Shown one piece after another: positions 2,188 through 7,842 of a stretch of DNA of 10,226 bases (position 1 is its first letter; every line of letters starts with the position of its first letter). The stretch covers positions 1 to 10,226 of IMG/VR virus record IMGVR_UViG_2681813004_000013; one strand, 5' to 3'. Origin of the DNA: a virus. Taxonomy: Duplodnaviria > Heunggongvirae > Uroviricota > Caudoviricetes. Both the position numbers and the translations under genes were made by a program. The notes beneath the pieces are model-generated. The model saw nothing but the letters and a program-made list of their open reading frames with translations. It was not told where the DNA came from and searched no databases.

Positions 2188-2263
<76 letters not shown>

Positions 2264-2265
2264 AC

Positions 2266-2341
2266 TGGACCGCCACCGGGGACTCGAACCTCGCACACTC
2301 AACTTAAAGGGTTGACGCTCTTTCCTGATGGCTAGTGGCGG
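2266..2341 (-). tRNA. Atypical tRNA-like gene (positional anticodon UUU, loop CCUUUAA); possibly degenerate
   Basis: Minus-strand CCGCCACTAGCCATCAGGAAAGAGCGTCAACCCTTTAAGTTGAGTGTGCGAGGTTCGAGTCCCCGGTGGCGGTCCA has a perfect 7-bp acceptor stem, T-loop TTCGAGT, encoded CCA and a perfect 5-bp anticodon stem TCAAC/GTTGA. Position 33 is C instead of U, the D-stem is only 2-3 bp, and the T-stem has one A-C mismatch. Confidence 0.5.
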
Positions 2342-2342
2342 T

Positions 2343-2418
2343 TGGTGGCCCTTGCTGGATTTGAACCAGCGACCTGGCGATTATGAGTCGCTCGCTCTCA
2401 CCACTGAGCTAAAGGGCC
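2343..2418 (-). tRNA. tRNA with CAU anticodon, ileX/ileZ-like (tRNA-Ile2 reading AUA after lysidine modification, or tRNA-Met)
   Basis: Minus-strand GGCCCTTTAGCTCAGTGGTGAGAGCGAGCGACTCATAATCGCCAGGTCGCTGGTTCAAATCCAGCAAGGGCCACCA: canonical cloverleaf, anticodon loop CTCATAA. It is close to the E. coli ileX sequence as I recall it. Confidence 0.85.
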
Positions 2419-2446: not shown

Positions 2447-3160
2447 TCAATAATCAAGCCCTTGCCTGGATACATATCTGTCTGGCGGGAAGCCATAATA
2501 GCGGTGAAATACAGAAATAAAGTAGGACCTGCTTGAATAACCGCATTTTTCTGCTATAGCCTGTCCATATCCATGCCGGGAACATAACATATTTACAGCA
2601 ACACGCATCCGCTCTTCCAGCAACAAGCGACTGAACATGCCCCCTTCATTTTTCAGTTTTGTCTTTAACAAACTCTCACTCATATGCAACTGTAGAGCAA
2701 TCGCACCAAGCGTCCAGCTTGCTGATATATCTGTCTGAATTATCGCCCTGACTTTGGCACTTATGCTGGATAAACATCCACTTAAAAACAATGACATCCG
2801 TTCATCTGTTTCAAACAGAGACAGGCAGGCCATCATAAGAAACATATCCGTGGCCTCTCCGGAAAATCCCTGGCTGGTAATTAAAGCCGCAGCCAACGCA
2901 GGATTGTTGGGTTCCAGCAACAGGTAAAGCGGAATGTCAGTCAGACGAGTCCTCGTCAGCTTATGCTGACTTTCCAGATATTGACTTACGACGGATTCGC
3001 TTATATCGACAATTTTAACTTTGCCATAATGCATAAGGAAAAGCTCCCTGATGCATTTGGTGGCCAGAACAACTGAGCCTGGCTTAAGTGACAACGTATC
3101 CTTTTCAAGAAAAATATTAATTGGGGAGCAAACCATGATAACTGAACAGACAACAGCCAT
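2447..3160 (-). CDS. AraC-family transcriptional regulator, AppY-like (prophage-encoded regulator type)
   Basis: The C-terminal 100 aa carry the AraC double-HTH signature (…IAEKCGYSSRSYFISVFHRYYGFPPDRY). The N-terminus MAVVCSVIMVCSP…KVKIVDI aligns with the N-terminus of E. coli AppY as I recall it (MDYVCSVVFICQS…KLRIVDI). ATG at 3160 sits in an AT-rich leader. Confidence 0.8.
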   Translation of the reverse strand: MAVVCSVIMVCSPINIFLEKDTLSLKPGSVVLATKCIRELFLMHYGKVKIVDISESVVSQYLESQHKLTRTRLTDIPLYLLLEPNNPALAAALITSQGFSGEATDMFLMMACLSLFETDERMSLFLSGCLSSISAKVRAIIQTDISASWTLGAIALQLHMSESLLKTKLKNEGGMFSRLLLEERMRVAVNMLCSRHGYGQAIAEKCGYSSRSYFISVFHRYYGFPPDRYVSRQGLDY

Positions 3161-3734: not shown

Positions 3735-4346
3735 TTAAAGCTGCATCAGCCTTTCCACCAGTTTATCTCTGCGAACAACAAACCAACCATTGGCTCTCGC
3801 CAGTTCCAGCCATGACTCAAGGGAAATAACAATATCATCATCCCGCAACTGAATTGTGGAAACAGTGACACCGCCTCGCTGATAACAGAGAACTCGCGTG
3901 TCGTAACTTTTCTGGCATGAAGCTGGCGCTGACGGATCCTTTTGTCTGAAATAGCACTCTTCCAGTTTTTCGAACACATCCCACGCCTGATCGGTTTCGA
4001 GCATTTTGGCGTGACGGGCTGCTCCGCGTTCTGTCCAGAGAATGAGGGAGCGGGCTTTCGGGGAAATTTGTAACCCTCTTAAAGATGGTTGCAAATTTTG
4101 TGAGTTACTTAAAGTAACCCGCAAATTTTGTGAGTAGTTTAAAGCTACCCGCAATTCTTTAAGGTCATTACCAACAACTTTGAAAAAGTGTTTCCCTTCA
4201 ACGAAGCGTACTTTGTTCTCATGATGATTCTGGCGAATGCGCACCGGCTCAGTGCCGTAAAGCTGCGCCAAAAGTTCGGTGGTAATAACAGGAATCTGGT
4301 TATGGGTGATCGGGGAGAGAGTTTCAACAGAAATTTGAGTTGTCAT
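3735..4346 (-). CDS. Phage antirepressor-like protein with N-terminal ORF6N-type domain and internal 10-aa tandem repeats
   Basis: ATG at 4346 with AGAGGG SD about 8 nt upstream. The N-terminal segment VITTELLAQLYGTEPVRIRQNHHENKVRFVEGKHFFKVVGNDLKEL fits the ORF6N antirepressor N-domain pattern as I recall it. The central region encodes repeats LRVALNYSQN / LRVTLSNSQN / LQPSLRGLQI from a 30-bp tandem DNA repeat. Confidence 0.5.
   Translation of the reverse strand: MTTQISVETLSPITHNQIPVITTELLAQLYGTEPVRIRQNHHENKVRFVEGKHFFKVVGNDLKELRVALNYSQNLRVTLSNSQNLQPSLRGLQISPKARSLILWTERGAARHAKMLETDQAWDVFEKLEECYFRQKDPSAPASCQKSYDTRVLCYQRGGVTVSTIQLRDDDIVISLESWLELARANGWFVVRRDKLVERLMQL
4090..4149. repeat. Two tandem 30-bp repeats (25/30 identical), each containing a short dyad-symmetric core, inside the ORF6N-like CDS; degenerate partial copies flank them (about 4063-4165)
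   Basis: Unit 1 is gcaaattttgtgagttacttaaagtaaccc; unit 2 is gcaaattttgtgagtagtttaaagctaccc. The cores are GTTAC-ttaaa-GTAAC and GTAG-tttaaag-CTAC. Four of the five differences between units fall at paired positions and preserve the dyad. Confidence 0.8.
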
Positions 4347-4505
4347 AATGACGCCCTCTGGTGGTTTCTTAATAACTCACCACCGACGACGCCAATCATC
4401 TGGTGGTGAACTGTGCGGGGTTGGCGTAACCGGGAAACCGACCGGCGCGGATCTCTCCGCCCCCACACAGCCCACCATAATTCAGATGTGCGCGTGCATA
4501 CGACA

Positions 4506-4529
4506 ATAAAAAACACGCTCGCGGCGTGT
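4506..4529 (-). terminator. tR'-like intrinsic terminator of the short late leader transcript
   Basis: Minus strand ACACGC-CGCGA-GCGUGU followed by UUUUUUAUUG. Lies about 70-80 nt downstream of the putative late promoter. Confidence 0.6.
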
Positions 4530-4590
4530 ATCTGTCGCGGTCTCTATCCAGGACGCCAATCCCGACGCCAGATTTTGCTGGCGCGTGAGG

Positions 4591-4620
4591 AATATAGCCC
4601 CGGATAACAGATTGAGTCAA
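4591..4620 (-). promoter_or_regulatory. Putative Q-dependent late promoter (pR'-like)
   Basis: Minus strand TTGACT (4620-4615), 17-18 bp spacer, then CTATAT/TATATT (4597-4591). The -35 overlaps the Q stop codon. Directly followed by the short leader and terminator, as in lambdoid late regions. Confidence 0.5.
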
Positions 4621-7118: not shown

Positions 7119-7236
7119 AACAAAACCCTATGAACTTTTAACATTTCCCCTTAAGGGGTCCATCCCTCTTCTCCCTGCGCGCTACTTAAGTATTTTTGAT
7201 TCTATTCCGGCACCTTCAAAAAGCTCAAACGTCTTG

Positions 7237-7270
7237 AAAATAAACAACAAAAAACCCGCCGAAGCGGGTT
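7237..7270 (-). terminator. Rho-independent terminator of the hok transcript
   Basis: Minus-strand RNA AACCCGC-UUCG-GCGGGUU (UUCG tetraloop) followed by UUUUGUUGUUUAUUUU. About 70 nt downstream of the hok stop. Confidence 0.75.
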
Positions 7271-7338
7271 AAGTGCGGGTGCGTTGAGGATGCCTGACAC
7301 ATCAGAGGTGGCGAGGGATTTCTCCCCCGCCGGGTCTC

Positions 7339-7494
7339 TTACTCCTCAGGTTCGTAAGCTGTGAAGACAGCGACCTCCGTCTGGCCGGTTCGGATTCGTA
7401 CCTCGCAGAGGTCTTTCCTCGTTACCAGTGCCGTCACTATGACGGTTAAACAGATGACGATCAGGGCGATTAACATCGCCTTTTGCTGCTTCAT
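7339..7494 (-). CDS. Hok-family type I toxin (membrane-depolarising peptide), HokD/Gef-like
   Basis: Hand translation gives MKQQKAMLIALIVICLTVIVTALVTRKDLCEVRIRTGQTEVAVFTAYEPEE (51 aa), which carries the canonical Hok signature (TM helix, then TRK-LCE-R-G--EVAAF-AYE). AAGGAG SD upstream. Not in the ORF track because it is shorter than 60 aa. Confidence 0.85.
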   Translation of the reverse strand: MKQQKAMLIALIVICLTVIVTALVTRKDLCEVRIRTGQTEVAVFTAYEPEE

Positions 7495-7614
7495 AGCCTG
7501 CTTCTCCTTGACCTTTCGGTCCGTAAGAGGCTAATCTCTATGTGTCGCATAGATATGGCCTCAGATTAATGTTAAGCGTCTTGCCGGACGCGTAATGTTA
7601 ACTGGGGCTTTTCT

Positions 7615-7650
7615 CTGTCTGCCTTACGGCGGCATGCCCGAGGCAGACAG
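7615..7650 (-). promoter_or_regulatory. Long stem-loop in the presumed hok mRNA leader (9-bp stem, 18-nt loop containing the palindrome GGCATGCC)
   Basis: ctgtctgcc (7615-7623) pairs with ggcagacag (7642-7650). No U-run follows on either strand, so it is not a terminator. It lies in the region where hok-family loci carry mok/sok/fbi-type RNA elements. Confidence 0.35.
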
Positions 7651-7711
7651 CCTCAAGCACCCGCAGCAATTCTACTTAACTCTCGCTTTACAGCAAACCG
7701 TTTTTGCCCGA

Positions 7712-7727
7712 TATGGGAATTCCCATA
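7712..7727. repeat. Perfect 16-bp palindrome TATGGGAATTCCCATA
   Basis: Exact dyad centred on GAATTC, in the intergenic space between the stop of the 34-aa peptide gene (7738) and the hok leader. A candidate operator or RNA hairpin. Confidence 0.7.
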
Positions 7728-7737
7728 CGGAATGAAT

Positions 7738-7842
7738 TCAGTTCCCCAGGCGATCCATCAAAAACACAACCAGGCAGTAAACACCCACAACAGCAATAAC
7801 AGCCAGAGCGCCTTCCATTACCAGTGAAATATCATCCGACAT
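7738..7842 (-). CDS. Small hydrophobic peptide (34 aa, single predicted TM helix)
   Basis: Hand translation gives MSDDISLVMEGALAVIAVVGVYCLVVFLMDRLGN. The ATG is preceded by a very strong SD, AAGGGAGGG, with a 4-nt spacer. A promoter-like TTGCTA…TAGTAT/TATATG lies upstream (minus strand, about 7880-7910). Confidence 0.5.
   Translation of the reverse strand: MSDDISLVMEGALAVIAVVGVYCLVVFLMDRLGN

Follow-up and report, generated by a model that had tools for sequence, protein, structure and literature searches.

The closest characterised relative of the locus described here is hokW-mokW-sokW of Sakai prophage 5 (VT2-Sakai), in which HokW is toxic and is neutralised by sokW expressed from its own promoter. 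Mitomycin C brings about RecA-dependent loss of sokW together with production of HokW, and deletion of hokW-sokW halves phage release (Takada et al. 2021, PMC8621323). The present locus lies on the minus strand of a 10,226-nucleotide (nt) stretch of DNA, IMG/VR record IMGVR_UViG_2681813004_000013 (hereafter the window), where the segment from about 7697 to 7247 very probably constitutes a complete hok/mok/sok type I toxin-antitoxin module. Over positions 7267-7705 it shares 90.7% DNA identity with hokW-sokW, and it occupies the same lambdoid position and has the same order of elements. The module is already known, being an ordinary copy of a well-catalogued hok/sok cassette in a lambda-like prophage.

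The hok/mok/sok (parB) locus of plasmid R1 has the same architecture, comprising a translational activator element (tac), a metastable 5' hairpin, the ucb and dcb elements, a mok Shine-Dalgarno (SD) sequence, a fold-back inhibitory element (fbi) and a sok promoter inside mok. The R1 locus is, however, plasmid-borne and mediates post-segregational killing, and its Hok is only 42% identical to that of the window. Escherichia coli K-12 hokC-mokC-sokC (gef) also has a homologous leader, but mokC and hokC share one reading frame, the Sok hairpin falls 18 nt short of that in the window, and IS186 lies immediately downstream of hokC.

The Hok peptide itself is identical at 51 of 51 residues to HokD (RelF) of the K-12 Qin prophage. 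Window positions 7146-7508 match NC_000913.3 1644928-1645288 with 96.1% DNA identity, from the hok SD through fbi and beyond the terminator, and both loci keep the downstream synteny with a DUF968 gene (ydfU) and a Q-like gene. In K-12, in contrast, relBE replaces the entire leader, with relE upstream of the SD, and the hok promoter, tac, ucb, mok and sok are absent. A first-pass annotation, made from the DNA letters of the window, had proposed an upstream context unlike that of relBE-hokD, and this is borne out, the K-12 homology beginning only at the hok SD. Because the homology is limited to 7146-7508 and starts exactly at that SD, a relBE insertion or rearrangement in K-12 would have removed the leader and kept fbi and the terminator, leaving relBE-hokD as a truncated remnant of which the window locus is the intact form. 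The literature likewise holds that hokD lost components by rearrangement (PMC12214031).

Evidence for a complete module

The Hok peptide matches Pfam HOK_GEF (PF01848) with E = 1.2e-23 and 82.9 bits against a cut-off of 22, and Rfam model RF01794 spans the whole leader (7662-7492) with full model coverage (105.9 bits against a gathering score of 59, E = 8e-24). Folding of the predicted 416-nt transcript gives a minimum free energy (MFE) of -181.3 kcal/mol, with z = -7.96 relative to shuffled sequences. The Pfam, Rfam and transcript-fold scores all lie far beyond chance, which excludes a chance pattern for the locus as a whole. Together with the homology described above they uphold the earlier proposal of a Hok-family locus with a structured leader of the hok/sok type. 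The NCBIfam Hok models do not reach their cut-offs, scoring 48.5 bits where 73 is required and 40.2 where 89 is, so the name HokD rests on the 100% identity and not on a hidden Markov model.

RF01794, which is named "sok antitoxin", matches the hok-sense strand, and its consensus stops at the hok AUG. What the model depicts is therefore the leader of the hok mRNA, folded open with tac and ucb paired, rather than antisense Sok RNA, and a match to the model would mislead annotation of the strand or ends of Sok.

Elements were placed by alignment with hokW, R1-type hok, hokC and hokB, by the Rfam structure line and by folding, with the R1 paradigm taken from PMC9841398. The first-pass annotation had recommended both an alignment with characterised loci and a structure prediction for the minus-strand transcript; the alignment placed mok, tac, fbi and sok, and the prediction returned a closed tac-fbi fold. 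Every feature that the annotation had listed was recovered in place on the minus strand. In the comparison with hokW-sokW, no difference is seen in tac, ucb, dcb, fbi or either SD, nor in the long Sok hairpin. Leader and coding sequence differ by substitutions and 1-2-nt indels only, several of them compensatory, with no insertion element, and the terminator is more diverged than the rest. The C-terminus of Hok reads TAYEPEE in the window and VDYESEK in HokW. Disruption of the leader by an insertion, a possibility that the annotation had raised, was not seen in the alignment to hokW-sokW. Its judgement that an active copy could not be told from a silenced one can be narrowed, as no element is inserted or deleted relative to the functional hokW-sokW, while activity itself stays putative.

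The hok mRNA and its predicted switch

Transcription of hok is predicted to start at G7662, the position at which RF01794 also begins, from a promoter (7697-7669) read from the sequence as -35 TTTGCT (7697-7692), a 17-nt spacer and -10 TAGAAT (7674-7669). Conservation was assessed over 106 prophage copies from IMG/VR, which reduce to 97 unique segments of 590 nt; TAGAAT and the GCGGGTGC that follows it are kept in nearly all 106, even where the DNA upstream differs. A generic scan for promoters and terminators detected the hok terminator yet missed both promoters, that of hok and that of sok, which were placed by homology. The full-length hok (mok-hok) mRNA is predicted to be about 416 nt long (7662-7247), and the cassette has sharp borders at about 7675 and 7255.

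At the 5' end of the mRNA, tac (GGGUGCUUGAGG, 7662-7651) is the partner of fbi in the MFE structure and of ucb in the Rfam consensus structure. In the nascent transcript it is predicted to pair with GCCUCGGGCAUGCC in a metastable hairpin of 13 bp (7662-7631), which is the MFE structure of the first 35-45 nt (-21 to -26 kcal/mol). This pairing accounts for the GGCATGCC palindrome (7638-7631) that had been noticed embedded in a 9-bp stem-loop. The stem-loop (CUGUCUGCC/GGCAGACAG, 7650-7615) is real, a conserved hairpin lying between tac and ucb and enclosed by the tac/ucb stem, with a compensatory G7648A/C7617T change relative to hokW. Its loop, GGCAUGCC, lengthens the metastable 5' hairpin and is included in the 13 bp.

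The ucb element, or anti-SD (AAAAGCCCCAG, 7612-7602), alternates between two partners, the mok SD region when the RNA is closed and tac when it is open. The mok SD, GAGG (7562-7559), lies 8 nt 5' of the mok AUG, at a position equal to that of the R1 GAGG mok SD (PMC9841398). Folding places the mok AUG in the apex of the Sok-target hairpin (UCUAUG-CGACA-CAUAGA, 7553-7537), and the 6-bp stem of this apex is the hairpin seen around the upstream ATG in the first pass. The dcb element (AGCCUCUUAC, 7532-7523) is invariant in the 97 unique sequences and is partner to the hok SD in the closed fold and to the mok SD (GAGGC) in the open fold.

The hok SD, AAGGAG (7509-7504), is read in the same way as the promoter and marks the start of the K-12 hokD homology. 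It precedes a coding sequence of 51 aa (7494-7339), which confirms the intact toxin gene with a good SD reported earlier; the HokD coding sequence is among the Hok homologues that are toxic when overexpressed (bioRxiv 10.1101/2025.08.07.668861). At the Tyr47 codon, UAC and the following G form UACG (7356-7353), a TadA A-to-I editing motif (Tyr to Cys). In K-12 the hokD mRNA is edited at 6% (PMC12214031), and by analogy we infer editing of the window copy at codon 47. The motif sits in an unpaired junction of the predicted full-length fold. Downstream of the coding sequence, a stem-loop in the 3' untranslated region (GGCGGGGGA-GAAA-UCCCUCGCC, 7331-7310) occurs in all predicted folds and by comparison with R1 is likely to be the protective 3' hairpin of the processed mRNA (PMC9841398). 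The fbi element (CCUCAACGCACCC, 7289-7277) can form 12 bp with tac, with one bulge. The intrinsic hok terminator (7270-7247), common to K-12 hokD, consists of a 7-bp stem (AACCCGC-UUCG-GCGGGUU, 7270-7253) followed by a U run, and agrees with the earlier description of a strong terminator with a UUCG tetraloop.

In the closed full-length MFE structure, tac pairs with fbi (7289-7277), ucb (7608-7602) with the mok SD region (7564-7558), and dcb (7530-7525) with the hok SD. The open fold has the tac-ucb stem, the mok SD paired to dcb, and the mok AUG in the apical hairpin. Forcing the tac-ucb stem costs 12.5 kcal/mol when fbi is present and 0.7 to 1.1 kcal/mol once the 3' end is trimmed past fbi; the tac/fbi pairing contributes about 11-12 kcal/mol to the switch. 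The tac-ucb structure had been expected as the MFE of the 3'-trimmed RNA and was not obtained, the MFE being the metastable hairpin or an alternative fold. The trimmed-RNA result is compatible with the switch model but is no proof of it.

The tac and fbi elements covary over 16 hok loci from about ten genera (Escherichia, Shigella, Klebsiella, Kluyvera, Pantoea, Siccibacter, Atlantibacter and others), with compensatory changes such as GGUGCCUGAGA with UCUCAUGGCACC in hokB. The scan of genome contigs with the pattern GCCTCTTAC...AAGGAGAA was unspecific, as 12 of its 120 loci were true hok; those 12 sufficed for the covariation test.

mok, Sok and the variable target patch

The short open reading frame (ORF) which the first-pass annotation had described as ending over the hok ATG is real and corresponds to mok. 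This leader ORF (MRHIEISLLRTERSRRSRL, 7550-7491) has 19 codons, with its ATG at 7550, and its TGA (7493-7491) overlaps the hok ATG (7494-7492) as AUGA. It differs in this from mokW, which is in frame with hokW (70 aa), and from R1 mok, which has 70 codons and overlaps hok in a different frame. An in-frame mok (70 aa, "MokW") is found in about 80% of the prophage copies, hokW among them, whereas six of the 106 have a 68-codon mok in the +1 frame and 14, including the window, have the 19-codon mok ending at AUGA. Three reading-frame solutions for mok thus coexist in near-identical cassettes, and the short mok, out of frame with hok, belongs to the minority. Translation of R1 mok has to reach no further than the hok start region and hok SD (PMC9841398), so a 19-codon mok should work, probably via termination-reinitiation coupling to hok.

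A Sok promoter and terminator could not be assigned with confidence in the first pass, but homology to sokW and SokC now allows the promoter and the RNA ends to be assigned. The predicted sok promoter (7508-7537, plus strand) lies inside mok and was placed by positional homology, with -35 TTGACC (7508-7513), an 18-nt spacer and -10 TAATCT (7532-7537). The hexamers align with TTGCCT and TAACCT of sokW, where the spacer is 17 nt, and with TTGCGC and TATCCT of R1. The sokW -10 has been inactivated experimentally (primers YO-421/422, "pro-less" construct, PMC8621323). Sok is predicted to be an RNA of about 77 nt (7544-7620, plus strand), in which a 13-nt tail at the 5' end leads into a long hairpin (7557-7609) followed by a U-rich end, UUUCUCUGUCU. 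Its start at about G7544 and its 3' end at about 7620 were placed by homology to the annotated K-12 SokC (16952-17010), both ends of which align with those predicted here; the annotated SokC 5' end, GUUCAGCAU, is also the 5' end of the hokW/hokC-type Sok. A G stands 7 nt past the -10 in every allele examined. The predicted Sok folds with -33.4 kcal/mol (z = -4.78), and its sequence is complementary to the AUG and SD of mok and to ucb.

Within a leader that is otherwise invariant, variation is greatest at 7553-7534, a stretch that spans the target loop with its 3' arm as well as the Sok 5' tail. This patch occurs in about 20 alleles, and all keep the target hairpin at -11.5 to -15.5 kcal/mol while the loop sequence varies. 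For the first 20 nt of Sok, predicted duplexes reach -36 to -39 kcal/mol with the RNA's own target and -12 to -31 kcal/mol with other alleles. Such a pattern matches what specificity diversification among co-resident copies would give, and we put forward, tentatively, that the 20-nt patch is a specificity determinant which diversifies among prophage cassettes and keeps co-resident copies orthogonal. Only four isolate genomes with two sampled loci were available to test this, of which three had differing alleles and one the same; a random pair of loci shares an allele in about 11% of cases, a rough estimate from allele counts, so these four genomes carry no weight either way. If the proposal is true, the window allele would stand as a regulatory variant in its own right, marked by a 5-nt loop, a 19-codon mok and termination-reinitiation coupling at AUGA. 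The window has CGACA as its target loop where hokW has CUGAACA, and a 5-nt loop could alter the kinetics of Sok binding. The idea that a loop shorter by 2 nt destroys a YUNR U-turn, and hence Sok recognition, was dropped because other common alleles also have no obvious YUNR and the window allele recurs in 14 contigs.

Prophage context, proposed mechanism and role

Per-column entropy in the conservation set is near zero from about 7675 to about 7255 and rises to 1.4-1.8 bits on either side, and the flanks of the 106 copies are unrelated while the cassette is conserved. These sharp borders indicate that the cassette moves as a promoter-to-terminator unit, and with its own promoter, toxin gene and terminator it is self-contained, like a phage "moron". 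It lies in the lambdoid nin region, between the replication genes and DUF968-RusA-Q, in the orientation of early rightward transcription; the order on the minus strand is a DUF977 gene, unknown ORFs, hok, DUF968, RusA and a Q-like antiterminator (DUF1133). The window matches complete E. coli genomes over at most 58% coverage and is a mosaic lambdoid prophage, whose genes run in the order seen in E. coli prophages that carry a hokD annotation. Of 5426 E. coli genomes, 4730 have matches to the 800 bp around hok, at as many as 10 sites in one genome, and the annotation there is hokD. In the best E. coli match the cassette is flanked by replication protein P on one side and the DUF1367/DUF1364/Q genes on the other, with its orientation unchanged. 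Strain EDL933 alone has 13 hok/sok loci (Faridani 2006), and a recent Hok census counts thousands of prophage and phage hok copies, with Mok and Sok explicitly unanalysed there.

Beyond the Q-like gene the window carries isrK and C4-type RNAs, an ORF6N protein, an AraC-family regulator, three tRNAs, a DNA methylase and a P21-type holin. The RNAs (4399-4597, minus strand) lie directly downstream of the Q-like gene and upstream of the ORF6N-domain gene (3735-4346), with Rfam scores of 75.5 bits for isrK, 67.8 bits for C4 antisense RNA and 50.5 bits for the a1/b1 targets. This region has the appearance of an antisense immunity module, P1-type and c4/ant-like, within a lambdoid prophage. The three adjacent tRNA genes, Met(CAT), Lys(TTT) and Thr(TGT) (2188-2418, minus strand), of which the Rfam gathering search gave only two, are flanked by the AraC-family regulator (2447-3160) and the DNA methylase (1209-2141) and lie upstream of the P21-type holin (926-1204).

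The homology, the presence of all elements and the energetic switch leave us highly confident that the window encodes the canonical hok/sok mechanism. The course proposed below follows the R1 and hokW paradigm, and in it we infer the transcription starts, 3' processing, toxicity of this copy and biological role. The hok mRNA would start at about G7662, and its first 32 nt would initially form the metastable hairpin. The finished 416-nt RNA would be locked closed by tac (7662-7651) with fbi (7289-7277), the mok SD masked by ucb and the hok SD by dcb, so that neither translation nor Sok binding could occur. Slow 3' trimming would remove fbi and free tac for ucb, and the mok start region would be displayed in its hairpin. 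Ribosomes on the 19-codon mok would then pass the hok SD and stop at the UGA in AUGA, coupling hok translation to that of mok. So long as transcription of the cassette continues, Sok, an unstable antisense RNA from the plus strand (about 7544-7620), would pair with the mok SD and start and block mok and hence hok, and formation of the Sok-mok duplex would trigger its cleavage, in the paradigm by RNase III. Once the supply of Sok ends, Hok would accumulate and permeabilise the inner membrane. As for hokW-sokW, the role is most likely loss of Sok and production of Hok on prophage induction, aiding lysis and phage release. The cause of Sok loss was left open by the hokW authors (PMC8621323). We suggest that it could lie in transcriptional interference, with antiterminated early rightward transcription running against the sok promoter.

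Several points count against a working module of this kind. Without fbi, the open tac-ucb fold is not the MFE and lies 0.7-1.1 kcal/mol above it; the sok promoter has 8 of 12 consensus positions and an 18-nt spacer and was missed by the generic promoter scan; and the target loop (CGACA) measures 5 nt, whereas hokW, hokC and other alleles have loops of 7-9 nt. Cys47 depends on low-level RNA editing (6% for K-12 hokD, PMC12214031), toxicity and expression of the window copy are predictions from sequence, and chromosomal hok loci tested earlier gave no post-segregational killing (bioRxiv 10.1101/2025.08.07.668861). An intact-looking cassette might be functionally silent, either decaying or tightly locked like the K-12 hok loci, and yield no toxic amounts of Hok. 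K-12 hokA, C, D and E are indeed regarded as inactivated (PMC12214031; bioRxiv 10.1101/2025.08.07.668861), and in the window allele the target loop is unusually small and mok is shortened. Unlike K-12, however, the window shows no insertion sequence element or rearrangement and has every regulatory element in place, the same allele occurs in 14 independent prophage contigs, and the transcribed unit is conserved where the flanks are not. The close relative hokW-sokW is active from its native prophage (PMC8621323), and the reported toxicity of the overexpressed HokD coding sequence (bioRxiv 10.1101/2025.08.07.668861) points the same way, making a silent cassette improbable. The same module and RNA mechanism could instead serve mainly in prophage maintenance, through post-segregational killing, or in phage exclusion rather than in helping lysis. 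The stabilisation of plasmids and the reduced plating of T4 by R1 hok/sok would fit such a role, as would the roughly four-fold enrichment of hok genes in prophages. The window itself holds nothing that discriminates maintenance or exclusion from a role in lysis, the literature records no enrichment of hok near defence systems, and the sole experiment on a near-identical prophage locus, hokW-sokW, gave a positive effect on phage release. Maintenance or exclusion as the main role is therefore a serious alternative, but one we consider somewhat unlikely.

The perfect 16-bp palindrome (TATGGGAATTCCCATA, 7712-7727), which the first-pass annotation had likened to a fold-back element, exists as described, but that likeness does not hold. 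The palindrome lies in the non-conserved flank upstream of the hok promoter, outside the conserved cassette, and the real fbi is the element at 7289-7277, which the annotation had not listed. The palindrome stands 15 bp upstream of the hok -35 and reaches 22 bp, still perfect, in some relatives (CGATATGGGAATTCCCATATCG), and on these grounds it might be taken for a regulatory part of the hok/sok locus such as an operator or a fold-back element. Against this, it is outside the hok transcript, conservation falls sharply upstream of about 7675, and hokW, R1, hokC and hokB have no counterpart. It is confined to 16 of the 106 loci, always beside the 3' end of the same small hydrophobic ORF and whichever hok allele is present; in the window this ORF of 34 aa (MSDDISLVMEGALAVIAVVGVYCLVVFLMDRLGN, 7738-7842, minus strand) precedes the palindrome. 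A perfect palindrome of 16 bp arises in 15% of shuffled windows and alone is unremarkable. A regulatory part in the hok/sok locus is thus very unlikely. No U run follows the palindrome on either strand.

Two things are new here, both minor: the minority short-mok allele, and the variability of the patch that holds the Sok tail and target loop. The research value of the locus is limited to the way in which the Sok recognition patch and the mok frame differ between alleles of the prophage copies. For annotation, pipelines label only a "hokD" coding sequence at such loci; with the coordinates defined here, mok, the predicted Sok RNA and the switch elements of the mRNA can be annotated as well. 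The comparison also shows K-12 relBE-hokD as a derived, decapitated form of a complete prophage cassette.

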